47,804 nucleotides of DNA from a virus (taxonomy: Duplodnaviria; Heunggongvirae; Uroviricota; Caudoviricetes), in IMG/VR virus record IMGVR_UViG_2541047728_000005; one strand, 5' to 3'. Under the pieces are notes generated by a model. That model searched no databases. It saw only the letters and a program-made list of their open reading frames with translations, and was not told the origin of the DNA. The position numbers and the translations under genes were made by a program. Of the stretch, positions 17,146 through 43,119 are shown in pieces; positions within the stretch are counted from its first letter, which is position 1, and each line of letters opens with the position of its first letter.

Positions 17146-17706
17146 TTATTCTTCCTGCTTAATAAATCGGGATTCCTGGAGCGCCTGAAGCGCAAAATTA
17201 ATCTCGTCTTCAATAATGCGCTCGATCTCCCTGGCTGTTTTGCCTTCACAACGGGGAGCTGCTCTTGGAGCAATACTAAATAAGCGGCTACGCAATTCAT
17301 TAGCTGCCAGAAATGCATCATCCCTGACCGCATCTTTAGCGATGAGAGAGCCTTCCTTTTCTTCAAATTCAAGGCGTTTCAGCTTTGCCTGATAAATTTT
17401 TTCTGCGGTCTTAGCCTTGTTGAATTGCACCGCAACACCGGAAGTACCACCAGCTAATCCGGCATCATCAGCGGGTAACTCTGGTTGTTCCGAAGATATC
17501 CCATGCCCTCTTTTTCCATTTTCAGCAGATACCTCACGACCAACCTGTCGGCTCGCTTCATAAGCCGCACTGGCTTTATCAAAATCCAGCTTGCCGCTTT
17601 TCAGCACTGGAATGCGACCGGAACGACAGAGCTTCGTAACCATTGCCGGAGAAATACCTTTCCGGCGGGCAAACTCTGACTTACTGACGATGGCCATTAC
17701 TTGCAA
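17146..17706 (-). CDS. Terminase small subunit (HTH DNA-binding)
   Basis: 186-aa ORF immediately upstream of TerL; N-terminal HTH-like ...ARRKGISPAMVTKLCRSGRIP... Confidence 0.6.
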   Translation of the reverse strand: MQVMAIVSKSEFARRKGISPAMVTKLCRSGRIPVLKSGKLDFDKASAAYEASRQVGREVSAENGKRGHGISSEQPELPADDAGLAGGTSGVAVQFNKAKTAEKIYQAKLKRLEFEEKEGSLIAKDAVRDDAFLAANELRSRLFSIAPRAAPRCEGKTAREIERIIEDEINFALQALQESRFIKQEE

Positions 17707-18287
17707 CCATTAGCAAGATACTGAACAAATCCCTCATGCGTTTCATGCGCGTCGTGGTACTGACGATAAACATCCAGCAACAATGCAATTTCCATATCCG
17801 TCGCGGGAATACGTTCTTTATCAATAGCCAGGTACTTAATTTGAACAACAGGGGAAGAATTATCGTCTTCTTCCTGCGGCTGTTCATCGCTTAACATTTC
17901 GTCAAGCTCTGCATCATTAAACCCAAGCAGATCAATATCAAAATCATCATCCATTAACTCTTTGACTTCTTCGGCCAGAAGCTGCATATCCCAGCCAGCA
18001 TTTAAGGCCAGCTTGTTATCTGCAATCCTGTAAGCCTTCTTCTGTTTTTCAGAAAGGTTACTCAACCGAATCGCCGGAACTTTATCCATTTCCAGAATTT
18101 CGGCTGCTGCAAGCCGCCCATGCCCCGCAATCAGTTCATTCTTTTCATCGATCAGCACAGGATTAGTGAAACCGAACTCACGGATACTGTTCACCAACTG
18201 TTCAACTTGCTCATCTGAATGAGTCCGTGAATTTTTGGCATATCTGAGCAACTTACCGACTGGTAAATATTCGATTTTTAGAGCCAT
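17697..18287 (-). CDS. ParB-like nuclease (ParB N-terminal domain) protein
   Basis: 196 aa; motif LIDEKNELIAGHGRLAAA typical of ParB/Srx fold; paralog of 20953..21576. Confidence 0.75.
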   Translation of the reverse strand: MALKIEYLPVGKLLRYAKNSRTHSDEQVEQLVNSIREFGFTNPVLIDEKNELIAGHGRLAAAEILEMDKVPAIRLSNLSEKQKKAYRIADNKLALNAGWDMQLLAEEVKELMDDDFDIDLLGFNDAELDEMLSDEQPQEEDDNSSPVVQIKYLAIDKERIPATDMEIALLLDVYRQYHDAHETHEGFVQYLANGCK

Positions 18288-18843
18288 TTTTTAACCGCCA
18301 TAACACAACAGGTTAAAGAAAACTGTTTAACTTATTGATACTAAAAGAGAAAAATGACGATCTTTTTACTCATGAAAAATCACACAAACCAGCATAATTA
18401 TCTGATTTTATTAAGTTTTTATAAGTAAAAAGGATCTTGCGATGGTGTTTTGGTTAAAAGATTGGATGTATTTGCATGATTTATAACGATTTTTATCAGA
18501 ACAACATCACATTGGTTAAAGATCTGCGCGTATCTTGATGATCTAAAAGAAAATTTTCCACTTTCTTTTTACCAGCACAAATACAGAAAAAATCACGTTT
18601 TCCCGATATTTTTCAATGAGATGAGTAAATTTCTTTTACCGCAACTTTTAACCTAACTTTTTTCACGTTTAGCTAGCCGAATATCGGGGTTCGAATGACC
18701 CGCATCCAACGCTTTTGTCCAGAAGGACCCAATTCTGCCGGACGATGAAACGATGCTCGTGCTCCCCCACAGACAGCCAGCGAGCGACGCTACAGAACAC
18801 AGTGAATACACTCTGCATAACAACACCATCAACCACACGATGA

Positions 18844-19563
18844 TTAACGAGAGAAGGTCTTGGAAAGAATGTCATCAATAGCCTTTGTGACTTCATCAGC
18901 AAACGCATCCTCACCAGCACGCAGCGCCACGCCATGCCAATCAAGACGCTGCGAATAGTTAGGTTGCTGGATAAACGTAAGGATCAACGTAGGACGCCGC
19001 CCAACGCGCTGCCAGACGCCTGGTTGAAGCGGGTTACTTGTACCAGGTCGAACAACAAAAAACTCCGTAGGCTTGCCCTGACGGCGATTTTGATGCGCAT
19101 CTCGCTGAACTCTTAGGCCAGATAAGACCTGCTGTAATTGCCCCCGCGAAATATTCCCGTATTTGTCCAGCTTTGCGCCGGGACCAGGAGCAATCTGCCA
19201 GCCGTTAGGCAAATATCCACCAGCCCTTAGCGCCCCTTCTGAGCGTTTGTACTGTCGTTGGCCACCTTCGATTTGCGGAGTCAACGTTACAGGGGCTGGC
19301 GTTCCTCCCCATTCACGAGCATACACAATGGCTGTAGGATCACTCTTCTTTGCGGCCAAAACGTAAGTAGAGTTCTGAATCCACGGCGTGGGCCTGTCAA
19401 ATACCCGATTAATTTCATTCTTAATCGCAGCCTGAGAAGCCTTTGCCGTTCTGGTTGCCGCAAGCGCCATTGCGAACGGCAATTCGCGTTCTTCAAGGCG
19501 CTGGAGTTGTCGTTGAATATCCTGAGAAGAAAAATCCATCTTTATCTCAATTCTGTCAGCCAC
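18844..19563 (-). CDS. Hypothetical protein (Gln/Arg-rich, unrecognised)
   Basis: 239-aa ORF between two ParB-like genes. Confidence 0.45.
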   Translation of the reverse strand: MADRIEIKMDFSSQDIQRQLQRLEERELPFAMALAATRTAKASQAAIKNEINRVFDRPTPWIQNSTYVLAAKKSDPTAIVYAREWGGTPAPVTLTPQIEGGQRQYKRSEGALRAGGYLPNGWQIAPGPGAKLDKYGNISRGQLQQVLSGLRVQRDAHQNRRQGKPTEFFVVRPGTSNPLQPGVWQRVGRRPTLILTFIQQPNYSQRLDWHGVALRAGEDAFADEVTKAIDDILSKTFSR

Positions 19564-19579
19564 CAGCGCCTCCTACACA

Positions 19580-20959
19580 CTACTTAATCAACGGCCGGAA
19601 AGCCGCCAGCACATCATCAGATCGTCCGATTGTTGAACCACCAGGCAACGGCAACTCAAACTCAAAACGAACAGCTTTCTCCAGACTCGCCCAACTAAGG
19701 GAATCATCGTTAATGACGTGCAAATACCAGCTCTTACAGTTGAATATTGACCGCTTAATCCTGAAACCATGTACACGACACAACTGCTTCACTTCCTCAT
19801 CAGAGTGAAACTTCTGGTAAAACCAGTGCCCCTTCCGGTACAACGCGGTAAAACCGTCATGATCAATAAAATAAAGCCGGCTTTTGGAACTCGCCGCTTG
19901 TGTTTGCTTCAGGACTGTTTCCAGTTCTCCACGGCTACGGCCAGAAAAGAATATTGACCCACCAGCTTTACACAGGCCTTTCAGAACCGTCAGAACGGAC
20001 CATTCAGCCTCGACACTATCGACCGAGTTCAAAACGCTATCGCAAATCACGTAGTCGTAACGCCCTCGCGTTTTTAAGTCGTCCACCAGCGTATCAATCA
20101 TCCGGTTTGTTGCGGCCCTATCCAGAGTGTTTCCAGCGCCCTTACGGCGGAAAAGCTCGAGATCATGCAGGTTATATCCCTTTGCCCTGAGCATTCGCGC
20201 GTAGTCTCCCTGCCCCGAACCAAAATCAATTCCTCTTGGCGTCTTGGCAATGATCGGGAGGATCAACGACTCATACAGATTTGATTTCAGGCTGCCACCA
20301 TTACGCAACCGCATAAGCTGCGCATACGTCTGGATGTATGTTGTTTTCTCCAGATGAGAATACTCAAATACACCATAAGTTTTATTCAGATAACTTTGGT
20401 ATTTTTCCTTCTCAACATCAGGGATCACAAACACCGTTAGCGGTGTGCGCGTCATTTTCGCTGCTAATGCATACTGAGCACAGTGAATAACCTCACCAGA
20501 CTGAGTAGCAACACAACCACCCCACGGACCATACTTGATAACCAGTTCCGCTATGTTCTTTCGAACATATGCCATTTTCGCGCGCATATTGCCTGAGATC
20601 TGGCTTGCCGATACCTGAACAAAACCATGCTTATCTTCCAGACCGGACACCCTGCAACGCTCATCTCCGCTATCAAAATCCGTTCCGTTATGCAGTTGGT
20701 TAAACCGTACTTCGTCGTATACCGTCGTTTCACAGGGCAACACATACACCGCAGCACGCGTTATTCCCAACTTACGTAGCGCCTTCGTCCTTTGGTGTCC
20801 CGCCACCAGCAAATCGCCGCGCACTATCAATGGCTTCACAAGCCCCAGCTCCCTGACGCTTTCCGCCAGCCTCGCAAGATCATCCTCACCGATAAAACGC
20901 GGGTTATATTCCGCGCCGCGTAGGTGCGTTATGTCGTAATTGAGGTGAAGCATCAGCAC
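19580..20959 (-). CDS. ParB-N domain fused to class I SAM-dependent methyltransferase
   Basis: 459 aa; N-terminal LIVRGDLLVAGHQRTKALRKLG (ParB-N) and central IDFGSGQGDYARMLR (SAM-binding motif I); no DPPY/NPPY-type motif seen. Confidence 0.7.
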   Translation of the reverse strand: MLMLHLNYDITHLRGAEYNPRFIGEDDLARLAESVRELGLVKPLIVRGDLLVAGHQRTKALRKLGITRAAVYVLPCETTVYDEVRFNQLHNGTDFDSGDERCRVSGLEDKHGFVQVSASQISGNMRAKMAYVRKNIAELVIKYGPWGGCVATQSGEVIHCAQYALAAKMTRTPLTVFVIPDVEKEKYQSYLNKTYGVFEYSHLEKTTYIQTYAQLMRLRNGGSLKSNLYESLILPIIAKTPRGIDFGSGQGDYARMLRAKGYNLHDLELFRRKGAGNTLDRAATNRMIDTLVDDLKTRGRYDYVICDSVLNSVDSVEAEWSVLTVLKGLCKAGGSIFFSGRSRGELETVLKQTQAASSKSRLYFIDHDGFTALYRKGHWFYQKFHSDEEVKQLCRVHGFRIKRSIFNCKSWYLHVINDDSLSWASLEKAVRFEFELPLPGGSTIGRSDDVLAAFRPLIK

Positions 20960-21576
20960 ACCTCCCCAGCCAGCAATGCGGATACAAATCCGATATAGCT
21001 GCCATTATCATCAACATAACGAGACACCGCGCAGTCAAAACGATCCGCTTCCTCATCCGTTGCCGGGATTTTATGACCTCCAAATGACAGGTACTGAACT
21101 TTTACGCCTGATTTGGCCTCATCCTTCTCAAATGGGATATCCATACCCTCTGTGTCATCGTAGACTGCCGCACTCAATAAGTTATCCAGTTCGCGCTGAG
21201 TAAAACCAATTGAGTCCAGAGCAAAATCATCGGCCGCAAGATCTGCAAGCTCCGCGCTTAACAACTCTTCATCCCAACCAGCATTCAGCGGAATACGGTT
21301 GTCGGCCAGACGATATGCCTTCTTCTGATTCTCCGTTAGCCCAGCCAGAACAATGCAGGGAACATCATCCATCCCCAACTGAGTGGCCGCAGCAATTCGA
21401 CCATGACCAGCAATTACAACGTTGTTCTCGTCTATCAGGATCGGATTAGTCCATCCGTACTCCTGTATGCTGGCAACAATCTGATCTACCTGCTCCACGG
21501 AGTGTGTGCGAGCGTTCTTTTCATAACCAATCAACACAGAAAGTGGTAAAGAAACCACATTAAGATGTTTTGTCAT
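20953..21576 (-). CDS. ParB-like nuclease (ParB N-terminal domain) protein
   Basis: 207 aa; motif ILIDENNVVIAGHGRIAAA; paralog of 17697..18287. Confidence 0.75.
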   Translation of the reverse strand: MTKHLNVVSLPLSVLIGYEKNARTHSVEQVDQIVASIQEYGWTNPILIDENNVVIAGHGRIAAATQLGMDDVPCIVLAGLTENQKKAYRLADNRIPLNAGWDEELLSAELADLAADDFALDSIGFTQRELDNLLSAAVYDDTEGMDIPFEKDEAKSGVKVQYLSFGGHKIPATDEEADRFDCAVSRYVDDNGSYIGFVSALLAGEVC

Positions 21577-23180: not shown

Positions 23181-23450
23181 TCACTCATCATCTCCTGCCG
23201 CACATACAACCTCACAAAAAACATCAGCGGAATGTTTCTTTTTGAATGAATGGCGCTCAAAACCGCACTCAATATCAGGCGCAAAAACATCCACCACATA
23301 CGGTCTTTCAGAATGTTTGTTTTCCCAACGATAAACCGTAGTGACGTTGAAATGTTTTAACGCTTCACGGAACTCAACGCTGCCCGTCAGGTTTTTTGAG
23401 GTCAGGTATTGCAGGAGGTTTTTTACTACTTCACGGTCTTGTACTTTCAT
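23181..23450 (-). CDS. Hypothetical protein, first gene behind conserved promoter-leader cassette copy 1
   Basis: 89-aa ORF; ATG preceded by conserved CCGGAGATAACCCG leader/RBS. Confidence 0.5.
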   Translation of the reverse strand: MKVQDREVVKNLLQYLTSKNLTGSVEFREALKHFNVTTVYRWENKHSERPYVVDVFAPDIECGFERHSFKKKHSADVFCEVVCAAGDDE

Positions 23451-23457
23451 CGGGTTA

Positions 23458-23562
23458 TCTCCGGTTTAACCAGGGCGGGTATCGCTCGGTTTCGGGTATA
23501 ACCATAGGAAATTTTTTCCCACCTGTAAAGCACTTTTTATATAAATATATAATTATATAATT
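23458..23562 (-). promoter_or_regulatory. Conserved promoter-leader cassette, copy 1, with upstream palindromic TATA-rich array
   Basis: ~105 bp near-identical to 30406..30520 and 39875..39985; contains TTTACA-N17-TATGGT on minus strand and TATATAATTATATAA palindrome. Confidence 0.6.
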
Positions 23563-24144
23563 CTATGCCACTTGCCAGAGAGCATCATGCAACTGGATAC
23601 CTCCATTGCACTGGTTGCCCCAGCCATGCCAACCATCAGGTAAATCACCGCGAGCAAACAGCTCAATACGAGGAACATCACCTAACAGCCTTACCAGCTT
23701 GTCACGAACCACATCAGGCTTCCGAGAATGCTCCAGACGAGGCGATGTAAACGACTGAATGATCCCCGCATCAAGGCGGGTCGGCAATTTGCCTTTTACC
23801 GCAAACAAGCAATCTTCACTGTTTGCACGAGTCATATGCCCCATCCCCAGCTTATCTGGTTGTCGGCTACCACATTTGTTCCATGTGAAGCCCTTCATGG
23901 TCATAAGCCTGAATCCCCATGCTTTCACCACCAGCAACGCTTCTTCTGGCTGAGTCGGAACCCACCACATGGCCAACAAACACGATTCAGGATTAGCAAG
24001 CTGCCAGACAGGAATACGAGCAATATCCTCAGCTTTCATCGTTGAATACTTAAAACCAGCTCCACGATTCCCATCCTTACACTTATCTTTGTATTCCCAG
24101 GGGGGATCTGCATAAATCAGATTAAACAATGCAATTGCCTCCAT
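23563..24144 (-). CDS. DNA N6-adenine methyltransferase, MT-A70 family
   Basis: 193 aa with N-terminal catalytic motif IYADPPWEY. Confidence 0.8.
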   Translation of the reverse strand: MEAIALFNLIYADPPWEYKDKCKDGNRGAGFKYSTMKAEDIARIPVWQLANPESCLLAMWWVPTQPEEALLVVKAWGFRLMTMKGFTWNKCGSRQPDKLGMGHMTRANSEDCLFAVKGKLPTRLDAGIIQSFTSPRLEHSRKPDVVRDKLVRLLGDVPRIELFARGDLPDGWHGWGNQCNGGIQLHDALWQVA

Positions 24145-24452
24145 GTTAGTTGTGCCTCCGGCGCTTATCTCCGGCAGTCATAACGCTGGCCAGCTCTACA
24201 GCAGACGCAACGAAAAGGGCACTAACCAGACTGATTAATGCCCTTGCCTGTTGTGTGCCGGATATCGCCCGACAACGCTGTTTTGGTAACACGGCTACAG
24301 TTCCGTGCCGCTCCAGCTTTTACCCCTTTGCGGATAACAGGCCCTGCCTGTAACTTAGCCCCACGTTCGCCCGAAATGCGCACCAGGCACGCATAAAGAT
24401 GAGCACGAAGGAAGTAACTCCACCGCGCTTATCTTTATGTGTGAGAGTGAAT

Positions 24453-24528
24453 TGGTGGCCCCTACCGGATTTGAACCGATGACCGTGCGATTATGAGTCG
24501 CCTGCTCTAACCACTGAGCTAAGGGGCC
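24453..24528 (-). tRNA. tRNA with CAT anticodon, tRNA-Ile2 (lysidine)-like; could alternatively be Met
   Basis: Minus-strand GGCCCCTTAGCTCAGTGGTTAGAGCAGGCGACTCATAATCGC...GGTTCAAATCCGGTAGGGGCCACCA; cloverleaf with 7-bp acceptor stem, encoded CCA; 5' 42 nt match my recollection of E. coli ileX. Confidence 0.85.
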
Positions 24529-24539
24529 ATATTTGATCT

Positions 24540-24621
24540 GTTTGTCTGGTGTGGCGCCGCGCACGAAAATCCCAGCCAATAAATTCAGGATTTTTGGGCG
24601 CGGCGGCATATCAGACAAACA
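24540..24621. repeat. Nested inverted repeats flanking upstream side of tRNA gene
   Basis: gtttgtctg...cagacaaac (9 bp) enclosing gcgccgcgc...gcgcggcg and aaaatcc...ggatttt. Confidence 0.5.
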
Positions 24622-24667
24622 TGGTTGATGCGTGCGCCCATGAGAAAAGCGCATAGAATGTTGTAAC

Positions 24668-24700
24668 TATATATTTATATAATTATAGAAATATATATTA
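24668..24700. promoter_or_regulatory. TATA-rich palindromic repeat array (same family as parA-upstream repeats)
   Basis: tatatatttatataattatagaaatatatatta between spanin genes and tRNA. Confidence 0.45.
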
Positions 24701-26351: not shown

Positions 26352-26690
26352 ATAAAGCAACAAATTACGCGGTAATCGCTTAACGCAGTTTTACTACGTT
26401 AAATGAAACACTACACCCAGTTACCATCTAAAACAAGGTTTTTCCATAAAAAAACCTTCATATCGTGGTTAATCGATCAATAAAAAAACAATGTTCAACT
26501 TTTTACCAACCGAACATCCCGACCAGGACTTCCATAATATTCGCCGATATGCCACTGCTTAAGTTGAGTAATCTTCTCCAACTTAGCTCCCATAGAGTCC
26601 AGTTTCTGCCATGTTTTCGGTTGTATGTGCTTCATTACCCGCTCTGAATATCTGAATACTGCTCGTAATCGCATGGATTCTCACTACAGC

Positions 26691-28677: not shown

Positions 28678-28976
28678 TCCTCATCTGCAACGGGGGTGTT
28701 CCGCTCCAGCACCTTGTCCGCATCGGCGATCAGGTTTGCCAGACTCTTGTCTGAAATCTTCGTTACCGGAGTCGTTGGTTGCTCAACCTGCCCGATAGGT
28801 TTTATCGTGCTCAAAAGGAGGCGACGGCGGGAAAGTGGTGCCCCACAACGACGGCCATCTTCCTTGCGATATGTTTCTTTCGGACCAACACACCAGGTTG
28901 TCGGCGTCTCGCGCAACTTCACTTTTTTCTCACCATCATTGGTAATGATTATTCCGGTATGTGTTTTGATGCTCAT
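28611..28976 (-). CDS. Hypothetical protein
   Basis: 121-aa ORF. Confidence 0.35.
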   Translation of the reverse strand: MSIKTHTGIIITNDGEKKVKLRETPTTWCVGPKETYRKEDGRRCGAPLSRRRLLLSTIKPIGQVEQPTTPVTKISDKSLANLIADADKVLERNTPVADEEWWQDFRAAMLELQERRREELK

Positions 28977-29275
28977 GCCACAGCCCCTCTCAACGGCTTA
29001 ACTTTGGCTAATAAGGTGTTAAACAACATGGAGTTAGGATTCATGCCAAATGGCAATTCCGGTTTAGCGGAGTAGTACAGGCAACCATTTATTTTCCTGG
29101 TTGTTATCTGTCCTTCGGCAACCATGCTTCTCAGTCTGCAACGCATAGAGTTCTGCGACACACCAATGTGCTCCGCGATTACGTCCACTTTTGAACATGG
29201 GTGATCGGTCAGGAAATTAATCACATCTTGGGGGTTAATAATTTTGCGTTTCATTGTCGAGGCGTCCTTATACAT
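28973..29275 (-). CDS. Putative winged-helix DNA-binding protein
   Basis: 100 aa; segment DVIAEHIGVSQNSMRCRLRSMVAEGQI resembles wHTH; preceded by TATA-rich array. Confidence 0.4.
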   Translation of the reverse strand: MYKDASTMKRKIINPQDVINFLTDHPCSKVDVIAEHIGVSQNSMRCRLRSMVAEGQITTRKINGCLYYSAKPELPFGMNPNSMLFNTLLAKVKPLRGAVA

Positions 29276-29301
29276 TTATATAAATATATAATTCTATATA
29301 C
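29271..29301. promoter_or_regulatory. TATA-rich palindromic repeat array
   Basis: tacatttatataaatatataattctatatac. Confidence 0.45.
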
Positions 29302-29331: not shown

Positions 29332-30399
29332 TCAGGCTTTCAATAGCGATTCTTTCAGATATCGGGCATCAGCCAGGGCGTTTGGAGTAATCTTGCGAAC
29401 CCATGCATTACGGGTTGGACTCCACTTAAAGGCGCGTGATTTAAGCAGCGAACGAATGTTTGCCTCTGGTTTGCCAGGGAAATAAAACAGGATGCGGTTA
29501 TCCTCTGGATCTATCTCCATAGAAAAGCCGTCGTATTCTTCGCGCTGTGCTCCTGTTACAGACTTGACCGATTCAAGCTCCTTAATACGGCTCTGTAGTC
29601 GTTTGATTTCGGCGTTATTGTTGCTCAGTGCGTATGAAGGGAATCCGATGCGCCCACAGAAATCTCCGGCCAGTAACTCTTTGGCTTCGCTTTCTGTAAA
29701 CCTGAGATCGATTAATGCAGAAAGCTGCTGTATTTGGTCTTTTTTGTATTTGCGAATGGCCTTATTTGCGGCCTTCATTTTGACGTGTGACTTCATGCAG
29801 CCTTGCAGCTTACGAAGCAACTTAAATAGCGCATCAGGATCATCAGACGAAATTCCATTACGACCAACACCTGCGGCTTTGCTCTCGTAGTGTGATGCTT
29901 TACTTTCGCATTCAACAAACGCTTTTCTGAATAACGCATCAGCTTTAGACAAACGGCGGCGATGGCCTTTCGCGCTATAATGGTCAACTAAAATCGGCTG
30001 GCCTAACGGGATCACATCCAACAGGTCATGCGCTCGCTTATGCGCTACCGCACCTTCTTTTCTGGCTTTTTCTGCACGAGCAATATATCGGGCAAGACGC
30101 GCGTTCTGGCGTTCCTGATAGGTGTTTACGTAATCATCTCCGCGCTGCTGCTGTTCAAGCCATGCTTTGCGCAGATCTTCTGTTACATCCACCAGCTCCG
30201 CAGGGATACAACCAGTTTGGGCTTCATAAGAGTAACCATCCTCATAGATACGCCCATCGTCTTCAACAAAGAAAAAGGTTTCGTGCTCATCGCTTTTGAC
30301 CATACGACCATTAACATGGCGTAATAGGTAGCCAGTATCAGTGCTTAACAGGCTGTTAGGGTTGTTGATCCAGTCAGAAATAATTACTTGTTTATTCAT
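29332..30399 (-). CDS. Hypothetical 355-aa protein (possibly DUF3560-like), first gene behind cassette copy 2
   Basis: Track ORF starts inside conserved leader; start moved to ATG at 30399 preceded by CCGGAGAAATCTG. Confidence 0.5.
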   Translation of the reverse strand: MNKQVIISDWINNPNSLLSTDTGYLLRHVNGRMVKSDEHETFFFVEDDGRIYEDGYSYEAQTGCIPAELVDVTEDLRKAWLEQQQRGDDYVNTYQERQNARLARYIARAEKARKEGAVAHKRAHDLLDVIPLGQPILVDHYSAKGHRRRLSKADALFRKAFVECESKASHYESKAAGVGRNGISSDDPDALFKLLRKLQGCMKSHVKMKAANKAIRKYKKDQIQQLSALIDLRFTESEAKELLAGDFCGRIGFPSYALSNNNAEIKRLQSRIKELESVKSVTGAQREEYDGFSMEIDPEDNRILFYFPGKPEANIRSLLKSRAFKWSPTRNAWVRKITPNALADARYLKESLLKA

Positions 30400-30405
30400 C
30401 AGATT

Positions 30406-30520
30406 TCTCCGGTTTAACCAGGGCGGGTATCGCTCGGTTTCGGGTATAACCATAGGAAATTTTTTCCCACCTGTAAAGCACTTTTTATATAAATCTATAA
30501 TTATATATTTATAGATTTTC
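30406..30520 (-). promoter_or_regulatory. Conserved promoter-leader cassette, copy 2, immediately downstream of Q-like gene, with palindromic ATCTATAA...TTATAGAT array
   Basis: Near-identical to copies at 23458..23562 and 39875..39985. Confidence 0.6.
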
Positions 30521-32938: not shown

Positions 32939-33056
32939 ACCACGATATGTGGTATTAAAACCACATATCGTGAGTTTTTCAATGGGCGAAACAAAAAATA
33001 ACCTTCTATTTGTGGTCCACCTCTCGTCTTACCATGTGAAAACCACTAAATGTGGT
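32939..33056. promoter_or_regulatory. Divergent operator/promoter region with three ACCAC-N5-GTGGT operators (32939..32953, 32960..32974, 33042..33056)
   Basis: accacgatatgtggt, accacatatcgtgag, accactaaatgtggt between divergent repressor and cro-like genes; minus-strand TTGAAA-N17-TTTAAT overlaps O2. Confidence 0.65.
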
Positions 33057-33093
33057 AATGTATAAATAACCCACCATTCACGATTGATGAGAC

Positions 33094-33750
33094 ATGAAAA
33101 GCAACGACGAGAACATCAAGAAAGAAATAGGTCTGCGCATTCAGACTCTACGGAAACAATCCGGCATGACTGCCGGAGATCTCCAGCAAGTCACTGGAAT
33201 AGGCTTAAGCACCTTGCAGAACTATGAGGCCGGATTAAGACAACCATCTATACCTGCCATCAAGAAAATCGCGCACGCCCTGAAAGCATCAGCGCCTTAT
33301 ATCGCGTGCTTAACAGATAACCCGTTCCCACCCCAGAATACTAACGCTCCTGTTATTCCTGGGCTTGTAGCTATAAAAAATGACATAGCATCGCACGCCG
33401 GAGAAAAGCCAGTGCTGGCGATAGAACAGGAGATTCTACGAAGCAAGAACATCAACCCATCGTCTCTGTCAGTTCTCCAGAGCAACGATGAGTTAATGTC
33501 ACCAACAATATCCCCAGGCTCCCAAGTCCTGATTAATACAGACGATACAGAGATTCATGAGGGGATCTATGCCCTTGAAGACAGAAATGGCCTGGTTGTT
33601 TTGAGGCACTGTAGAGTCATACCGGGTGACAATGCTGTTATGCTGTCAACCGAAAGGGATGCTGAAATGAACACTAAGCATCTGAATAACGAGGAATTTA
33701 AGCGTTATAAAGTTCTTGGCCGCGTAGTTAGTGTTGTCAACTGGTTATGA
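33094..33750 (+). CDS. cI/LexA-like repressor (HTH_XRE plus S24-like C-terminal domain)
   Basis: 218 aa; N-terminal HTH (TAGDLQQVTGIGLSTLQNYEAG); C-terminal MSPTISPGSQVLINTDD...KVLGRVVSVVNWL resembles lambda cI/LexA C-domain. Confidence 0.8.
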   Translation: MKSNDENIKKEIGLRIQTLRKQSGMTAGDLQQVTGIGLSTLQNYEAGLRQPSIPAIKKIAHALKASAPYIACLTDNPFPPQNTNAPVIPGLVAIKNDIASHAGEKPVLAIEQEILRSKNINPSSLSVLQSNDELMSPTISPGSQVLINTDDTEIHEGIYALEDRNGLVVLRHCRVIPGDNAVMLSTERDAEMNTKHLNNEEFKRYKVLGRVVSVVNWL

Positions 33751-33792
33751 TACACAGCACGGCGAAAGCCGTGCATTTCTACGCTCAAAAAA

Positions 33793-33807
33793 ACCACATT
33801 TTGTGGT
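33793..33807. promoter_or_regulatory. Fourth operator ACCAC-ATTTT-GTGGT downstream of repressor gene
   Basis: accacattttgtggt, perfect palindrome adjacent to TTGACA. Confidence 0.55.
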
Positions 33808-33842
33808 TTTGACAACATGTAAAAGTATAAAAGAGGCTACGC

Positions 33843-34217
33843 ATGGAATTACATACAGCCAATAAAAACGAAACTCTGATCACTGCTGGAATCGAAATCC
33901 AAGCGTTGAACATAGCGATTGAGTGTATGTTATGCCAAATCATTGATAATGAGAAAGATATCGACTGGATAGAATCTATCCTTCATCTGGCATCAGAACA
34001 AAAAGTCTGCCTCAAAACGGCCTTACAATACGATGTGCCAGCGATATCGAAGCTGTGCCAGCCATTGATGGCATATAACAGGGCTATTATTTCTGTATGC
34101 CTCATGATTCTTGATGAAAACACCCCTCTTAGCGACCGCTCAGAAGCTGCTCTCACCCTCTCACGTAAACAGCGACAGCTAGCAAATCAACTGATATCAA
34201 CGATAGCTGACCTCTGA
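33843..34217 (+). CDS. Hypothetical protein downstream of repressor
   Basis: 124-aa ORF. Confidence 0.4.
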   Translation: MELHTANKNETLITAGIEIQALNIAIECMLCQIIDNEKDIDWIESILHLASEQKVCLKTALQYDVPAISKLCQPLMAYNRAIISVCLMILDENTPLSDRSEAALTLSRKQRQLANQLISTIADL

Positions 34218-34221
34218 CTGA

Positions 34222-34241
34222 AAGCGGGCTAACGCCCGCTT
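34222..34241 (+). terminator. Hairpin after 33843..34217, possible terminator
   Basis: aagcgggc-taac-gcccgctt. Confidence 0.4.
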
Positions 34242-34245
34242 ACAT

Positions 34246-34346
34246 GATTATAGATTTATATAATTATATAAAACGCTTTTCATCCGCCAAAAAGTTGGTT
34301 ATGCTTACCTCGTTCTATAAATATAGATTTATAGAATTATATAACC
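34246..34346. repeat. Two TATA-rich palindromic repeat arrays upstream of parA (candidate centromere/operator)
   Basis: gattatagatttatataattatataaaacgc and ctataaatatagatttatagaattatataacc; related arrays at seven other loci. Confidence 0.55.
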
Positions 34347-34367
34347 AAACACATGGAGTCTCGACAA

Positions 34368-35021
34368 ATGACTATCTCTGTAGGTATTTTCAACGGAAAA
34401 GGCGGCGTAACCAAATCAACAATTGCCCGTGCTTTAGCAGTTGCTTATGCAAAGGCCGGCTGGAATGTATGCCTGATCGATATGGATGTGCTTAACGGAA
34501 CGGTAACGCGTTGGGTACAACGCAGAATGGCCAACAATATCGAACCTGCAATCGCGGCGCAGCCGTGCGGCACGCCATCACAAGTCCAGAAAATCATCGA
34601 ATCAGAAGTATACGACCTGGTTATCGTCGATGGCGGTGCCTACGCATCTGAATCAGTACCGAAGCTCTCTGAATTTCTGGATATGGTTATTTTGCCAACC
34701 AGATTCTCTACCGATGACCTAGAAACCACCGTTAACACAGCTCACGGCATCGTTAAAAAGGGTGTGCCAATCAAGAAAATTTGCATGGTGTTCTCAGGCG
34801 CGGCTGAAAACGAAGCCGACTACATTGAAGCCCAAGAGTACCTAGCTAATACGCCATACTTTGTTGTCGATAAGTACATTCCCCACAAGCCAGCTCTGAG
34901 CAAAGCTCAGGATAAGGGCTTAAGCCTCATTGAATGCTCATACGTTGCGCCACGCAAAAAGGCAGACGACGTTATTCAGGGGATTATCAACCAGCTTGAG
35001 GCTCTGACTACTGCCGCGTAA
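34368..35021 (+). CDS. parA: ParA-family partition ATPase (small, type Ib-like)
   Basis: Deviant Walker A GKGGVTKST; ~217 aa from GGAG RBS-supported ATG at 34368. Confidence 0.85.
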   Translation: MTISVGIFNGKGGVTKSTIARALAVAYAKAGWNVCLIDMDVLNGTVTRWVQRRMANNIEPAIAAQPCGTPSQVQKIIESEVYDLVIVDGGAYASESVPKLSEFLDMVILPTRFSTDDLETTVNTAHGIVKKGVPIKKICMVFSGAAENEADYIEAQEYLANTPYFVVDKYIPHKPALSKAQDKGLSLIECSYVAPRKKADDVIQGIINQLEALTTAA

Positions 35022-35056
35022 TATATAATTATAGTTTTATAGATTTATATAAGAGG
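35021..35056. promoter_or_regulatory. TATA-rich palindromic repeat array between parA and RHH gene
   Basis: atatataattatagttttatagatttatataagagg. Confidence 0.45.
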
Positions 35057-35064
35057 GGATACAC

Positions 35065-35313
35065 ATGGCCGGACCATCAAAACCACCAAAGAAGAACAGC
35101 AAAGGCGTACCGCCATCGATCGAACAACCGCAGGTTTTCGACCCGACTGAAACGCCAACCAGAACCAAATCAGGTGGGGCACAAATGGCGTTTAACGTCG
35201 ACCCTGAATTTAAACGCGAGTACAAAACGTTCGCCAGCTCAATGGATATGTCATTGAAAGAAGTGCTGACAAAATCTTTTGAGTTACTCAAGGCTCAATA
35301 CAACCAGAAGTAA
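35065..35313 (+). CDS. Ribbon-helix-helix centromere-binding protein (ParG-like)
   Basis: 82 aa; flexible basic N-tail then AFNVDPEFKREYKTFASSMDMSLKEVLTKSFELL RHH-like fold; AGAGGGG RBS. Confidence 0.55.
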   Translation: MAGPSKPPKKNSKGVPPSIEQPQVFDPTETPTRTKSGGAQMAFNVDPEFKREYKTFASSMDMSLKEVLTKSFELLKAQYNQK

Positions 35314-35342
35314 GAGAAGGTGACGGCCTCCAGCGCCAACTG

Positions 35343-35525
35343 TTGGCCGTCGCGACACAACAAGGGGAATTTGTTATGTCCGAGCAACAATATACACGGT
35401 TACTGAAAACTCGTCTAACCGACCTCAAACGGCTGAAAGCTGGTCGCTTATTTGCCCTGCTATCCACCAGGCCAGAATGGGTACGTGAAGCAGTTCTGAA
35501 AGGCTTAATGCGCTCCAGCGTTTAA
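35343..35525 (+). CDS. Small hypothetical protein
   Basis: 60-aa ORF after parG-like gene. Confidence 0.3.
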   Translation: MAVATQQGEFVMSEQQYTRLLKTRLTDLKRLKAGRLFALLSTRPEWVREAVLKGLMRSSV

Positions 35526-35534
35526 ATTCAACCA

Positions 35535-35557
35535 TAAAAAAGGCCCCCGAAGGGGCC
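35535..35557 (-). terminator. Rho-independent terminator oriented for minus-strand transcripts
   Basis: Minus strand GGCCCC-ttc-GGGGGCC followed by TTTTTTT; 7 nt after stop of small ORF 35564..35686. Confidence 0.65.
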
Positions 35558-35563
35558 TAATCG

Positions 35564-35686
35564 CTACTTGCTGCTAATGTTTATCGTCACATTCAGAGCG
35601 TTATCAGTAATCTTCCAACCCTCCCCATGTGGCGTAAACAAAGCCCCAGTAACAACGATAAAAATACACATACAGTATTTTTTCAT
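35564..35686 (-). CDS. Small hydrophobic peptide (40 aa), candidate type I toxin-like or small membrane protein
   Basis: MKKYCMCIFIVVTGALFTPHGEGWKITDNALNVTINISSK; AAGGG RBS 7 nt upstream; strong terminator immediately downstream. Confidence 0.45.
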   Translation of the reverse strand: MKKYCMCIFIVVTGALFTPHGEGWKITDNALNVTINISSK

Positions 35687-35917
35687 TGTATGGCCCTTAC
35701 AGGCCGTTTCACGGCATCCCCACCGACGAAAACAACGCGAGAGCAAGCACGGCTGCTTGTGCTTGCATGTACGGCAACGGAGAATCCTCCCCTAAAGTCG
35801 GTGCCCGGGTGCGAATCGGCGGGAAGGTCCACAGGTATTTTACGATTATTTTAAGATTAGTAATAGGAAAGAAATTAAACGAAAAAACTCGTTTATTTTC
35901 ACAAAATCAGTAACCTA

Positions 35918-35932
35918 CCCACAATCTGTGAG
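35918..35932. promoter_or_regulatory. Operator-like site related to O2
   Basis: cccacaatctgtgag vs O2 accacatatcgtgag. Confidence 0.35.
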
Positions 35933-36004
35933 TTTGCAGGCACAACAAGAACCACAATTTTTTGAAGCATAATAGTGGACTATTATTACCTTTTGGGTAA
36001 AATT

Positions 36005-36111
36005 AACTTGCTGCTTGTGCTTGCGTGGTTGTTTATACAACGACGTTATGCTGAAAGGACCGCGAATCCGATCAGCACGAAAGAACCGTCCTCAATAGGG
36101 CGGTTTTTTTG
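36005..36111 (+). ncRNA. Candidate small RNA ending at intrinsic terminator; carries 15-nt repeat complementary to the opposite-strand transcript region at 35753..35767
   Basis: TAAAAT -10-like at 35998..36003; gctgcttgtgcttgc at 36010..36024 repeated at 35753..35767; hairpin CCGTCC-ucaaua-GGGCGG plus T7 at 36084..36111. Confidence 0.35.
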
Positions 36112-36179
36112 TTTCTGCCTACCAATAAACCCACGCTATGTGGTTGTCTCTGTTAAAATCCCGCCGTATTGACATGAAT

Positions 36180-36279
36180 GCGCCATTGGTGGACACTTTC
36201 CGAGCCGTAGCAAAATCTACGGTCGGGATTGGAACCCCGATAATCATCATGGCGCATACCGCGTTAGCGGTTTTTTTAT
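36180..36279 (+). ncRNA. Structured RNA segment ending at intrinsic terminator in antirepressor operon leader
   Basis: Hairpins CCGTAG-caaaat-CTACGG, CGGG-attggaa-CCCG, terminator ACCGC-gtta-GCGGT plus TTTTTTT at 36259..36279. Confidence 0.35.
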
Positions 36280-36442
36280 GCGTAAAGCACTGCTACACCC
36301 AAATTATGGTGGGGCGTGCGGGGGAGTCGTAAGACTCGCCGGATTCCATGGTGACCGGTAGTTCCAACCCTGTACGTCTCACCACCCAATGATTGGAACC
36401 AGACGGTGGTGAGTATCCTTAACCTTTAAGGGAACTATCACC

Positions 36443-36634
36443 ATGACAAACTTACCCCATGACTATTACGTCAACCTCGTAAAGATCCTTCTCAAGAAAG
36501 CCTCATACGCCGATAAATTCCGCCTAGCTGAAATCATCGAGCGCGAAGCTATGCGCATCGCCAGCAACGATAACGCTGTTTCTGACGCAAAAATCTCCCT
36601 CGTAACCAAAGTAGTTATGGGAGGTGCAAAATGA
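36443..36634 (+). CDS. Small protein preceding antirepressor (icd-like position)
   Basis: 63-aa ORF overlapping start of antirepressor gene (ATGA); AAGGGA RBS. Confidence 0.45.
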   Translation: MTNLPHDYYVNLVKILLKKASYADKFRLAEIIEREAMRIASNDNAVSDAKISLVTKVVMGGAK

Positions 36635-37773
36635 AAACGCTTCCGACCGTTAACACCCTACAGCCTATCTTGCATAACCAGATCCCCGTTATTACAACTG
36701 AACTTCTGGCGCAGTTATACGGAACAAAAATCAAAAACATTTCTGATAACTTTCTGAACAACACGACGCGATTCATAGCCGGAAAGCATTACTTTAAAAT
36801 TGAAAAAAACGAATTACGCGAGTTCAAGAACAGACCTGAAACAATCGGGTTAGTTGGTAAAAATGCCCGCTCCCTCATTCTCTGGACAGAACGCGGGGCT
36901 GCACGTCACGCCAAAATGCTCGAAACCGATCAGGCGTGGGATGTATTCGAACGGCTGGAAGACTGCTATTTCAGCCAGAACGCGCAAACGGCCGCGACCG
37001 TAACCGTCTCGCCAAACAATGCTCGTGAGGTTGTCGATACGCTCAACGCCAAACCGATGTTTTACATTAAAGTGTGCAACAACGAGCCACTCACAACCTC
37101 AGCCGATGTTGCCCAAGCATTCAGCACCACAAACAATTCCATCGTTATGGCCATCGATGCGCTACGCATTCCTCGCACGGCTGCGGCGCGTCACTTCTTT
37201 AAAGAGCAACGACCGCTGGAAGGAAGCGACCGCGAAATAACAATCTATCGCATGACAAAAGACGGATTTACCTTGCTCATGGAGAGCATCGACGGTCCAA
37301 GCGTGAAAGATATCAAGCTGGCCTACATTGAAGCCTTTAACGCTATCAGCAGCGTGTTAAAAACACAGTACGAGCGTGATCTGGCTAAACGACTGTACCA
37401 GGAAAAAACGATTATCCGCGCGGCAACAGAGCATAATCGGCTATTAACGGAACCGAACTACAGGAAGGAACTAATCAAGGCGTTTGACAAGGCAACAGGG
37501 AAAACCAAAGCGGCGCTAAATCTGCCAGCAATGACTCAGGAAAATGTGATATCAGCCTTACTTCTTGATCTGCTCAGAAACGCCAGAGCACTTATCAGCT
37601 TTGACGAAAACCTGAATCCTCAGCTCAAGCTACTACCACCGACAGGCAAAGTAGTCGACCAAGCTGATCACAACAGCATACTCAGCGTACTGGATGCAAA
37701 CCTGCCAGCCAAGACACTACAGGATCTGATAAAAACATGTGCTGATAAGCTGGCACAGAAAAGCAGACCATAA
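36631..37773 (+). CDS. Antirepressor-like protein (ORF6N/KilA-N-type N-terminal domain)
   Basis: 380 aa; N-terminal ITTELLAQLYGTKIKNISDNFLNNTTRFIAGKHYFKIEKNELREFK...LWTERGAARHAKMLETDQAWDVFERLEDCYF matches ORF6N-type antirepressor pattern. Confidence 0.65.
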   Translation: MKTLPTVNTLQPILHNQIPVITTELLAQLYGTKIKNISDNFLNNTTRFIAGKHYFKIEKNELREFKNRPETIGLVGKNARSLILWTERGAARHAKMLETDQAWDVFERLEDCYFSQNAQTAATVTVSPNNAREVVDTLNAKPMFYIKVCNNEPLTTSADVAQAFSTTNNSIVMAIDALRIPRTAAARHFFKEQRPLEGSDREITIYRMTKDGFTLLMESIDGPSVKDIKLAYIEAFNAISSVLKTQYERDLAKRLYQEKTIIRAATEHNRLLTEPNYRKELIKAFDKATGKTKAALNLPAMTQENVISALLLDLLRNARALISFDENLNPQLKLLPPTGKVVDQADHNSILSVLDANLPAKTLQDLIKTCADKLAQKSRP

Positions 37774-39485: not shown

Positions 39486-39866
39486 TTACTTAACGAGGAA
39501 TAAAAATGGTTTATCGTTCGGCGGTGTAATCGGGGCTGGCTCGCTTTTGCTCATGCGATCAGTGTACCAGGCCAACTCCTTGTCAAAGTAAGCCTGATTA
39601 AAATAGGCCATGAATGTGGTTTCAAATCCATAACGACCGCTAATACGGAGCATCTGATTGCCGTTCTCTGTTTCCAGATATACCTGGGCACGTTCCTGAT
39701 TCTCCTTCAGCCAGGTTAAAGCCTCATCGCACGAGGACAAACGATACTCATCATCGTAGCCGTCATCGATGCGGCTTGAAGAAGAACGGCAAATCACGCC
39801 AACAGAACCAGCCAGGATAGTTTGAATTTTAAGGAAAGCGTTTTTGCGGATTTTAATCATGCTCAT
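39486..39866 (-). CDS. Hypothetical protein with N-terminal signal-like hydrophobic segment, first gene behind cassette copy 3
   Basis: 126-aa ORF; ATG preceded by conserved CCGGAGATAACCCG leader. Confidence 0.45.
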   Translation of the reverse strand: MSMIKIRKNAFLKIQTILAGSVGVICRSSSSRIDDGYDDEYRLSSCDEALTWLKENQERAQVYLETENGNQMLRISGRYGFETTFMAYFNQAYFDKELAWYTDRMSKSEPAPITPPNDKPFLFLVK

Positions 39867-39874
39867 CGGGTTAT

Positions 39875-39985
39875 CTCCGGTTTAACCAGGGCGGGTATCG
39901 CTCGGTTTCGGGTATAACCTTAGGAAATTTTTTCCCACCTGTAAAGCACTTTTTATATAAATCTATAATTATATAATTCTATGAG
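39875..39985 (-). promoter_or_regulatory. Conserved promoter-leader cassette, copy 3, with TATA-rich array
   Basis: Near-identical to 23458..23562 and 30406..30520 (single a/t difference in 'aaccttagg'). Confidence 0.6.
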
Positions 39986-42138: not shown

Positions 42139-43119
42139 TTAATGTTGGAGTGATTTCCAGGTCTTTCTTAACCTGTTATAACGCTGCTCAACGAGGGATC
42201 GTAAATATGCAAGGTCAGCACCAGGATACATGCCATCAGCAAATTCCTGACTAACCTCTCTGGTGATTTGATGACGAAGTTCGGCCTCTCCCTTTTCCCG
42301 AACAAGACGCGCAGCTCTCTCCGCTGCTTTCTGTTTTGCCTTTATCTCTCTGGCCGTCTTCCTCTGACGCCATACATTCTCCATCTGCTCCTGAATAACA
42401 ATACGCTTATAATCAGCCTCCGTTATCGCTTTTTTAAGCCGTTCGCTATTCTTCGCATTGAAGTAATTAAGTTTCTGGCTAACCGCACGTCTCCATGCTT
42501 GTTCAGTAATACCAACGGTTTCCAGCAGTTGATCACGAATCTCTATTTTCGCTGGCCAATACTGTTTATTCACCCGATCCCAGCGACGTTCATAATCAAT
42601 AAAACCTAACGCTTTCAGTTGCGACAACGCCCTTGTACAGCGCGTTATAGACTTGTTCCCAGCTTCGGATACGGTAGACAGGCCGCAAAAATCAGCCAAC
42701 GCCTCAGCACTAGCCAGAACCCGCTTAGAAATGATGTTTACATGGTGCAAAATCGCAGCGATCACAGCATTAATCGCCCGACGACGATGCTCGTTTATCC
42801 GGCGCTTCCGCTCTGACGGTTGATTAACGTAGAACGCAACCTCACACGTAAGATCACGCCCATTAATGCGCTGTAAAGCATCAGATAACACCAGCGGCAG
42901 CTTGTGCGTATGGTGCTTTGGAGGCTGGAACTCCGGCGACAAATTACAAACGTAAGCTGAACGTAGAGACGGCATTGGTCTATCCATATGTTCGCTCTTG
43001 CGTCCACGGAAAACCAACGTATAATGGGAGTTGTCGAGGCGCCCATGGATTGTTGTTGTTGGTTTTCCGTGGATGTCGCAAGAAGCCCGCAGATTTATCT
43101 GCGGGCTTTTTGTTTCCAT
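42139..43119 (-). CDS. repA: Replication initiator RepA (IncFII RepA1 family); true start possibly internal Met at 42987
   Basis: Segment RRRAINAVIAAILHHVNIISKRVLASAEALADFCGLSTVSEAGNKSITRCTRALSQLKALGFIDYERRWD closely parallels my recollection of R100/R1 RepA1. Confidence 0.8.
   Translation of the reverse strand: METKSPQINLRASCDIHGKPTTTIHGRLDNSHYTLVFRGRKSEHMDRPMPSLRSAYVCNLSPEFQPPKHHTHKLPLVLSDALQRINGRDLTCEVAFYVNQPSERKRRINEHRRRAINAVIAAILHHVNIISKRVLASAEALADFCGLSTVSEAGNKSITRCTRALSQLKALGFIDYERRWDRVNKQYWPAKIEIRDQLLETVGITEQAWRRAVSQKLNYFNAKNSERLKKAITEADYKRIVIQEQMENVWRQRKTAREIKAKQKAAERAARLVREKGEAELRHQITREVSQEFADGMYPGADLAYLRSLVEQRYNRLRKTWKSLQH
43031..43112 (+). ncRNA. CopA-like antisense RNA candidate in repA leader
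   Basis: Plus-strand TTGCGT-N16-TATAAT (42998..43025) followed ~60 nt later by 11-bp GC hairpin agcccgcagat...atctgcgggct and TTTTTGTTT (43084..43115), antisense to repA 5' region. Confidence 0.5.

Follow-up and report, generated by a model that had tools for sequence, protein, structure and literature searches.

Which protein reads the short, TATA-rich palindromic repeats that surround the partition gene parA of an enterobacterial phage-plasmid, and what is the role of the same repeats far away from this gene? The question is raised by positions 34,246 to 35,056 of a 47,804-nucleotide (nt) stretch of viral DNA (IMG/VR record IMGVR_UViG_2541047728_000005, Caudoviricetes), which as a whole is referred to here as the window. 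The comparison of related elements makes it likely that the repeats form eight arrays of cognate sites for the 82-amino-acid (aa) ParG-like protein encoded directly downstream of parA, and that this protein of a type Ib partition system also controls the promoters of accessory genes. The genes located behind the dispersed arrays are probably regulated by the parG product as well, because the related elements swap the repeat together with the small partition protein.

Phage-plasmids run the plasmid and the phage programmes from one genome, and the coordination of the two is poorly understood outside P1 and N15. In this element, sites for a type Ib partition protein appear to lie before at least five non-partition transcription units. 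Such a design recurs with at least seven repeat units in elements from Escherichia, Salmonella, Serratia, Vibrio and metagenomes.

Eight Arrays of a Palindromic Unit

The window holds exactly eight arrays, three at parA-parG and five elsewhere, the latter spread over 16 kb. They consist of abutting 8-bp units in a strict 8-bp period, with the perfect palindrome TTATATAA as the consensus, [AT]T[ACT]TA[TGA]A[AT] as the unit pattern and TTATAGAT/ATCTATAA, TTCTATAA/TTATAGAA and ATATATAA/TTATATAT as variants. The total of 31 units is divided into four per array in seven arrays and three in the array P1. In register, the arrays occupy positions 23537–23568 (A23), 24667–24698 (A24), 29268–29299 (A29), 30485–30516 (A30), 34248–34271 (P1), 34313–34344 (P2), 35021–35052 (P3) and 39953–39984 (A39). 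An array is therefore present at every place named by the first-pass annotation, which had been made from the letters alone; its heading counted seven loci besides parA, where the actual distribution is three arrays at the par locus and five elsewhere.

The base composition is insufficient to account for these arrays. Scanning the 47.8-kb window with 24-nt windows containing at least 22 A/T gave 13 AT-rich stretches, and those with 5–7 TATA tetramers (8/13) are exactly the eight arrays. In 200 dinucleotide-preserving shuffles of the window, which served as the null for the unit counts, single matches to the unit pattern had a mean of 52, so that the 96 observed represent only about a twofold excess. 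Runs of two or more tandem units were observed 17 times with 0.1 expected, and runs of three or more 9 times with 0 expected, all of them within the eight arrays. The definition of the motif, the count of its sites and the shuffled control, which had been proposed in the first-pass annotation, thus yield a real 8-bp unit far beyond chance. No array of two or more units was found near repA (42139–43119) in the tandem-unit scan of the window.

The arrays had also been described as mostly lying just upstream of promoters, and instead they form two geometric classes. In the first class, the array ends 5–8 nt upstream of a -35 hexamer (P1, A23, A30, A39 and probably A24). In the second class, the array abuts the ribosome-binding site (P2, P3 and A29).

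Exchange of the Unit among Related Elements

The region 33000–36200 of the window is 100% identical to the Escherichia coli plasmid pMB9698_3 (NZ_CP103471.1, 47.7 kb, circular), and the unit found in the window is called here the E. coli type. In the Salmonella element pAR-0407-1, whose ParG is approximately 90% identical, this unit type is present at eight syntenic positions, with the individual units turned over within the motif, and ten further close relatives retain the arrays. The Serratia element pJSRIV006_2 possesses a lambda-like tail module and has cI, parA, parG and the early-gene region in common with the window (ParA 54%, ParG 38–39%). Arrays of TTATATAA were not found in this Serratia element; its arrays are built of ATTTAAAT/TTTAAATA, again with the 8-bp period, two of them bracketing a TTTACA-17-TAATCT promoter-like sequence before parA and four located elsewhere.

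Further units were read in other related loci (the relatives are cited by their L numbers). The Serratia-type unit also occurs in L020. The unit CACGAAAG/TAAGAAAG belongs to the Vibrio phage 10N.237.312.C11_PE002A, L017 and L019, with two inverted arrays upstream of parA and three to six elsewhere, some of them inside the late operon. The unit GAATTAAC occupies the P1, P2 and P3 positions in L025, as well as the region upstream of parA and the parA-parG junction in L021. The unit GATATAAA/TATATATT is found in L030, L031 and L034–36 (eight arrays in the 20-kb L031 locus), GCGAATTC in L018 (seven arrays in 15 kb), TTTCGTTA in L026 and TTAATTAG in L024. Throughout the swapped classes from ATTTAAAT to GCGAATTC, the 8-bp period is maintained and the unit stands beside parA in every class; dispersed copies occur in all elements of these classes but L021, which is a short contig. 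Wherever a putative promoter could be read (Serratia, L020, Vibrio, L025, L031, L035), the units bracket it. The location of arrays beside the par operon, a trait of type Ib systems, is found in the window (P1–P3, 34248–35052), and this layout is kept in seven repeat-unit classes.

The correspondence between the par locus and the dispersed sites was quantified in a cross-matrix, in which the units read at each par locus were searched in every element outside the par region, with block-shuffle controls. The matrix is block-diagonal. The dispersed arrays of the element's own type number 5 in E. coli, 5 in Salmonella, 4–5 in Serratia and L020 and 3–7 in Vibrio and L019. The cross-type counts equal 0, except for 2 AT-rich cross-hits per cell of the E. 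coli and Salmonella units in Serratia and L020 (null at most 0.06). Moreover, when five relatives (L006, L018, L019, L020 and L021) were screened for the window proteins, only ParA and ParG turned up in every one of them; beyond ParA/ParG, L018 and L021 have only ParB/Srx-like proteins in common with the window. The unit swap, the cross-matrix, the sharing of ParA and ParG only and the 8-bp period together lend comparative support to the proposal of the first-pass annotation, in which the arrays were sites of the small protein encoded after parA within a dispersed centromere/operator network.

The exchange of the unit may be reflected in the ParG protein itself. ParG strands containing Lys appear to accompany the G-containing units, and strands with only Asn, Gln, Ala or Ser the pure A/T units.

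In the Vibrio phage L006 (PQ189289.1), CACGAAAG arrays at 19252–19283, 20695–20718, 26388–26419 and 29739–29762 lie in tiny gaps of the tail-gene operon. They have no evident promoter, unlike the promoter-linked arrays of the enterobacterial elements.

The Par Locus and Its ParG-like Protein

The par locus begins with P1 (TTATAGAT TTATATAA TTATATAA), located after a hairpin that follows the gene 33843–34217 and ending 5 nt upstream of the -35 hexamer of the putative parA promoter. This promoter (34277–34305, plus strand) reads TTTTCA-17-TATGCT and lies between P1 and P2. The position of P1 is kept in Salmonella, and analogous arrays of other units are present in Serratia, Vibrio, L020, L025, L031 and L035. 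P2 (TTCTATAA ATATAGAT TTATAGAA TTATATAA) is separated by 7 nt from the -10 hexamer on its upstream side and by 23 nt from the parA ATG on its downstream side, and the resulting order of array, -35, 17 nt, -10 and array is also observed in Salmonella and Serratia. P3 (ATATATAA TTATAGTT TTATAGAT TTATATAA) begins on the final base of the parA stop codon and stops 12 nt short of the parG ATG; it is also found in Salmonella, L021 and L025 and is absent in Serratia and Vibrio.

The parA gene (34353–35021, plus strand) encodes a small Walker-type partition ATPase of 222 aa in the longest open reading frame (ORF), or of 217 aa from the RefSeq start at 34368. Pfam CbiA, ParA and MipZ matches cover residues 10–191, and the NCBIfam model ParA_partition (203 positions) aligns end to end with residues 10–211, with 78 bits, below its cutoff. 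The closest solved partition proteins are TP228 ParF (4dzz) and 5u1g. ParA has no N-terminal helix-turn-helix (HTH) extension, and it possesses the size (about 200–230 aa) and architecture of the small ParA proteins of type Ib systems.

The parG-like gene (35065–35313, plus strand), the product of which is the proposed array binder, starts 44 nt after parA. In the AlphaFold2 (AF2) model of the 82-aa protein, residues 1–40 form a disordered basic tail (KPPKKNSKG), residues 41–46 an extended strand (MAFNVD) and residues 47–59 and 62–80 two helices. The predicted order of strand, helix and helix is that of the ribbon-helix-helix (RHH) topology. The protein belongs to PHROG 6024, a group of unknown function. 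A word-indexed homologue search with the protein returned close relatives only, and an exhaustive HMMER search returned approximately 50 clusters of 62–97-aa proteins with the same layout, in which the basic N-terminal tail is conserved. Among 50 family members, 19 match Pfam RHH_10 (best E 8.8e-6), 12 match Antitox_RHH, 4 match 56B_RHH and a single one matches Pfam ParG (PF09274, E 0.018). Profiles of the family align in register, though weakly, with the RHH structures 2kel (E 0.11), 1p94 of TP228 ParG (0.69) and 9kkd (1.4). The presence of a small RHH-like protein directly 3′ of parA, another trait of type Ib systems, is therefore supported by the AF2 topology together with the family matches. 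The protein is accepted here as a predicted RHH protein working like ParG, separate from the Pfam ParG family: the window protein has no match to PF09274, and TP228 ParG aligns with the family profile with the above E value of 0.69.

A further ORF of 60 aa (35343–35525, plus strand) follows parG and is unannotated in some records. The Salmonella, Serratia and Vibrio relatives retain it at this position (35–88% identity); it was not detected in the homologue screen of L018, L020 and L021, and has no Pfam, PHROG or NCBIfam match. It may represent an accessory third gene of the par operon.

A Promoter Cassette with Exchanged Arrays

Away from the par locus, the arrays A23, A30 and A39 each head a near-identical minus-strand module of approximately 120 nt, called the type I cassette. 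It consists of the array, AAAAGTGC, TTTACA, 17 nt, TATGGT, a conserved 5′ untranslated region (5′UTR), GGAG and ATG. In copy 1 (23450–23536), headed by A23 (TTATATAA ATATATAA TTATATAA TTCTATGC), the -35 TTTACA (23529–23524) and the -10 TATGGT (23506–23501) are followed by the 5′UTR and the ATG at 23450 of an 89-aa gene. In copy 2 (30399–30484), headed by A30 (TTATATAA ATCTATAA TTATATAT TTATAGAT), the corresponding hexamers are located at 30477–30472 (TTTACA) and 30454–30449 (TATGGT), and the 5′UTR leads to the ATG at 30399 of a DUF3560 gene (355 aa). Copy 3 (39866–39952) is headed by A39 (TTATATAA ATCTATAA TTATATAA TTCTATGA), located beyond the terminator that closes the relE/HTH toxin-antitoxin operon, and contains AAAAGTGC, TTTACA (39945–39940), 17 nt, TAAGGT (39922–39917), a 5′UTR hairpin, GGAG and the ATG at 39866 of a 126-aa gene. 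The gap between the array and the downstream -35 measures 8 nt in the type I cassettes, and the array end adjoins an A-tract resembling a proximal UP subsite.

The cassette was aligned among three E. coli, three Salmonella and three Serratia modules. The -35, the spacer, the -10, the 5′UTR and the ribosome-binding site are homologous, and the array segment consists, in each case, of the unit found at the element's own par locus. Four further type I modules are present in L031 and two in L035, where the arrays are of the GATATAAA type. Enterobacterial elements of at least four ParG types contain the type I cassette, in 2–4 copies per genome. One regulatory cassette has thus been fitted with operators matching different ParG proteins, a finding with no easy explanation other than recognition of the arrays by a par-linked protein.

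The genes behind the Serratia and the E. coli cassettes have no significant mutual similarity. By eye, the first residues of two cassette ORFs from L031/L035 resemble those of a Serratia and an E. coli cassette gene.

Between the promoter and the gene, the 5′UTR of the type I cassette (23450–23500, 30399–30448 and 39866–39916, minus strand; also in L002 and L031/L035) carries a conserved hairpin just upstream of the ribosome-binding site. Its stem reads AACC..GCG/CGC..GGTT in E. coli and Salmonella versus GGCC..GGC/GCC..GGCC in Serratia, with two pairs changed on both sides, and L035 has GAC/GTC at a further pair. The hairpin may act as a stabilizing or regulatory RNA element.

The remaining two arrays differ in their surroundings. 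A29 belongs to the type II layout, in which the array is followed by GGAnnCCTCGACAATG. It follows a hairpin and is continued immediately, on the minus strand, by AAGGACGCCTCGACAATG, the start of a 100-aa winged helix-turn-helix (wHTH)/MarR-like gene (28973–29275), which makes it similar to the layout of P2. In Serratia, L031 and L035, too, genes outside par are preceded by the type II layout. A24 (CTATATAT TTATATAA TTATAGAA ATATATAT) is located, on the minus strand, approximately 140 nt upstream of the tRNA-Met (24453–24528) and MT-A70 methyltransferase genes; no promoter was resolved at A24, and the array is present at the same position in Salmonella.

Proposed Mechanism of Array Recognition

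In the proposed mechanism, one ParG dimer would bind each 8-bp unit, and the 3–4 adjoining units of an array would be coated cooperatively. P1 and P2, located around the parA promoter, together with P3 in the gap between parA and parG, would form the centromere and the autoregulatory operator. P3 may also serve as a roadblock tuning the ParG:ParA ratio. The other five arrays would place further transcription units under ParG: the three near-identical cassettes, driving the 126-aa gene, the DUF3560 gene and the 89-aa gene, the operon that begins with the wHTH gene, and the region of the tRNA-Met and methyltransferase genes. At the cassettes, ParG most likely represses, and a coated array could exclude the C-terminal domain of the RNA polymerase alpha subunit, because the array ends 5–8 nt upstream of the -35 beside a UP-like A-tract. 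The dispersed arrays may additionally act as extra centromeres, as in pSM19035, a possibility suggested by the Vibrio arrays inside the late operon.

A bolder extension of this model, which is offered tentatively and is rather doubtful at present, considers ParG as the master regulator of a portable cassette, composed of the operator array, a sigma-70 promoter, a structured 5′UTR and a ribosome-binding site. Such a cassette would have spread through a superfamily of enterobacterial phage-plasmids, with the operator re-tuned to the resident ParG. As no ParG is present in a newly infected cell, entry would bring a burst of expression from the cassette genes: the DUF3560 gene, the methyltransferase region and the small genes of unknown function would be on, and would be shut off as ParG accumulates. 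If this were the case, partition, establishment or anti-defence functions and phage gene expression would be coupled through one 82-aa protein.

Alternative Explanations

A different regulator encoded by the element, namely the 60-aa protein, the 124-aa protein encoded before parA or the wHTH/MarR-like protein (28973–29275), could bind the arrays, with ParG bound to some of them or to none, and this explanation is considered unlikely. The location of the wHTH gene directly behind A29 speaks for it, and the first-pass annotation had named the wHTH protein as an alternative binder; neither this protein nor the 124-aa protein has a detectable homologue in the Serratia or Vibrio elements, although both elements contain arrays. 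The 60-aa ORF, kept beside parG in Salmonella, Serratia and Vibrio, is a partial candidate, yet it was not detected in L018, L020 and L021 despite their par-proximal arrays, and L018 and L020 possess dispersed arrays too. The tandem 8-bp period is moreover typical of RHH rather than HTH binding (PMC3130281). Three other candidates were rejected outright. The cI-like repressor has its own inverted repeat (32940–32973) and no array in its intergenic region, ParA has no HTH domain, and the arrays cannot be regarded as RepA iterons, as none is located near repA. Equally improbable is the explanation that the dispersed arrays are extra centromeres only, as in N15, with no role in transcription and an incidental proximity to promoters. 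It would account for the several Vibrio arrays in tiny gaps of the late structural operon with no obvious promoter (e.g., 19252–19283 and 26388–26419), and in pSM19035 the promoter-overlapping arrays are themselves the parS sites, with four contiguous repeats, the number of units per array here, as the minimum for the activation of ParA (PMC9499535). In the enterobacterial elements, however, the distance from the array to the -35 is fixed and the array is part of a cassette that has been multiplied to 2–4 copies per genome in elements of at least four ParG types, which argues for a link between array and promoter. The centromere and regulator roles are compatible and not mutually exclusive. 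The arrays could finally be intrinsic promoter DNA with no dedicated protein, such as UP elements, groups of TATAAT hexamers resembling the -10, or bent DNA for H-NS/IHF. Tandem units do yield perfect TATAAT hexamers, and the arrays are pure A/T, rich in TpA steps and located where UP elements lie. This explanation has very little probability, as the relatives keep a like architecture and like positions with G/C-containing units (CACGAAAG, GAATTAAC, GCGAATTC), which cannot be UP elements, -10 hexamers or H-NS sites. The Serratia element, too, retains the promoter cassette with a different array, and neither the strict 8-bp register nor the palindromic unit is expected from base composition.

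Several points weigh against the assignment of the arrays to ParG as a partition protein and regulator. The unit swap leaves room for another co-diverging factor, because every protein has diverged between the compared elements. The 60-aa ORF, for its part, is likewise kept in the Salmonella, Serratia and Vibrio relatives. The ParG of the window has no significant Pfam, NCBIfam or PDB match in direct sequence searches, and for this reason the RHH assignment rests on the family members and the predicted topology; a Foldseek search with the AF2 monomer gave nothing informative, which is unsurprising for a fold that forms only as a dimer and carries a disordered tail of 40 residues. The strand residues do not correspond one-to-one with the units, since P-N-K is seen with both CACGAAAG and GAATTAAC. 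In the Erwinia phage LS-2018a (L005/L022), whose strand residues are those of Vibrio, the region before parA contains only degenerate TTACNTTT-like repeats instead of a clean array, so the unit prediction from the strand residues could not be confirmed there. In L023, one long palindrome (TATCCGTTTTTAGCTA...TAGCTAAAAACGGATA, approximately 9170–9215) precedes parA instead of arrays. The promoters are putative, recognized solely by their match to the consensus, and an array located before the -35 could also activate instead of repressing.

Relation to Known Partition Systems

The ParG protein of TP228 recognizes 4-bp boxes separated by 4-bp AT spacers, which results in an 8-bp period, with one dimer per box in either orientation and cooperative coating of the DNA (PMC3130281). 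The system of the window is similar to TP228 ParF/ParG in its small ParF-like ATPase and its partner of approximately 80 aa with a flexible basic N-terminal tail and a predicted RHH core, and to TP228 parH/OF in the 8-bp period and in the sites upstream of the operon, which in TP228 serve as operator and centromere (PMC3130281). In contrast to TP228, where 20 boxes form one block upstream of parFG, the arrays here are short, split into P1–P3 and accompanied by five dispersed ones; the unit is TTATATAA rather than ACTC, and the window protein does not match Pfam ParG.

A closer precedent for the regulatory role is the delta/omega system of pSM19035, in which arrays of Omega, an RHH ParB, overlap the copS, delta and omega promoters and serve as parS, and at least four contiguous repeats are needed for full activation of ParA (PMC9499535). 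Common to both are a small Walker ParA with an RHH partner, several short-repeat arrays, with direct and inverted copies, at the promoters of several operons (here parA and the three cassettes at 5–8 nt, with two further gene starts abutted) and an array length, 3–4 units here, close to the functional minimum of about four contiguous repeats established there (PMC9499535). The unit here is an 8-bp, mostly palindromic one, present 3–4 times per array, whereas pSM19035 has the 7-bp heptad WATCACW in 7–10 units, and the Gram-negative phage-plasmid carries its arrays at accessory-gene cassettes rather than at copy-control and toxin-antitoxin genes. No array at a copy-number gene was found in the window (none at repA), and no sequence similarity of the window protein to Omega was detected.

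The phage-plasmid N15, invoked by the first-pass annotation, is a looser analogue. The scattering of partition-protein sites over the genome of a phage-plasmid is common to both (PMC7205306). The remaining features differ: N15 SopAB is of type Ia, with a large ParA, a spreading HTH ParB (SopB) and four single palindromes of approximately 16 bp (IR1–4), and the N15 genome is linear and that of a lambdoid siphovirus. The small ParA, the RHH-like partner and the tandem arrays of the window leave dispersal as the only common trait. The Sop system of N15 is said, in work of Ravin et al. from 2008 (cited in PMC11652158), to influence late gene expression. A similar binding geometry is reportedly known from MetJ, described by Somers and Phillips in 1992 as an RHH dimer on the palindromic 8-bp metbox AGACGTCT, with 2–5 abutting units bound cooperatively. 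The likeness is confined to geometry: MetJ is encoded on the chromosome, represses metabolic genes with the help of an obligatory co-repressor and plays no part in partition. The IncP protein KorB is a ParB with 12 OB sites across the plasmid, co-regulating many operons; unlike the protein discussed here, it is an HTH, cytidine triphosphate (CTP)-dependent ParB that uses single 13-bp palindromes and can act at a distance.

A partition protein that regulates many operons from dispersed sites is thus already known from Omega, KorB and, in part, N15 SopB. Literature searches for ParG in phage-plasmids, for the array sequences and for the related Yersinia phages found no description of the system. 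The novelty lies in a type Ib RHH case in phage-plasmids, in the short 8-bp palindromic arrays, in the operator-swapped cassette and in the breadth of specificity classes. The elements would offer naturally occurring, mutually orthogonal pairs of RHH protein and operator that follow a simple 8-bp code, a testable model of a partition protein regulating accessory genes in phage-plasmids, and a defined promoter cassette by which accessory cargo can be recognized.

The Element and Its Other Features

The region 33000–36200 is found in 62 enterobacterial plasmids of 44–52 kb (one record of 94 kb) and, with approximately 96% identity, in the Yersinia phages vB_YpM_39, 41 and 44; E. coli ATCC 25922, a standard laboratory strain, harbours a member of the family (NZ_CP009073.1). 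The annotation of pMB9698_3 includes a contractile-tail structural module, terminase, portal and lysis genes, as well as plasmid RepA, ParA, a cI-like repressor and a RelE/HTH toxin-antitoxin pair, and NCBIfam assigns RepA to the IncFII type. This gene content marks the window as a circular phage-plasmid, complete or nearly so, with a structural module of the myovirus type. The pSLy3 phage-plasmid group was considered as the home of the element and dropped, as the literature places pSLy3 in the SSU5 supergroup, the members of which are presumably of about 100 kb.

Rfam matches in the window comprise C4 antisense RNA, isrK, a ryfA-like RNA and tRNA-Met. The tRNA-Met (CAT) gene (24453–24528, minus strand), downstream of A24, is flanked by the lysis genes on one side and the MT-A70 methyltransferase gene on the other, and an ORF listed in its region (24355–24654) is probably spurious. 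The isrK-like and C4 antisense RNA genes (36204–36389, plus strand) are located directly 5′ of a Rha/ORF6N antirepressor gene (36631–37773). This set resembles the immI-type immunity module of P1/P7 and stands beside the separate cI-like repressor (33094–33750). In the divergent region between this repressor and the early operon, the scan of the window found no TATA array; a perfect inverted repeat with 14-bp arms (CCACGATATGTGGT / ACCACATATCGTGG, 32940–32973) is present there and is probably the cI operator or a bidirectional terminator. The ryfA family match (141.8 bits, 35536–35832, minus strand) lies immediately 3′ of the par operon in convergent orientation. Three proteins with ParB/Srx N-terminal domains (17697–21576, minus strand) adjoin the terminase genes and are unrelated to the ParA/ParG system.

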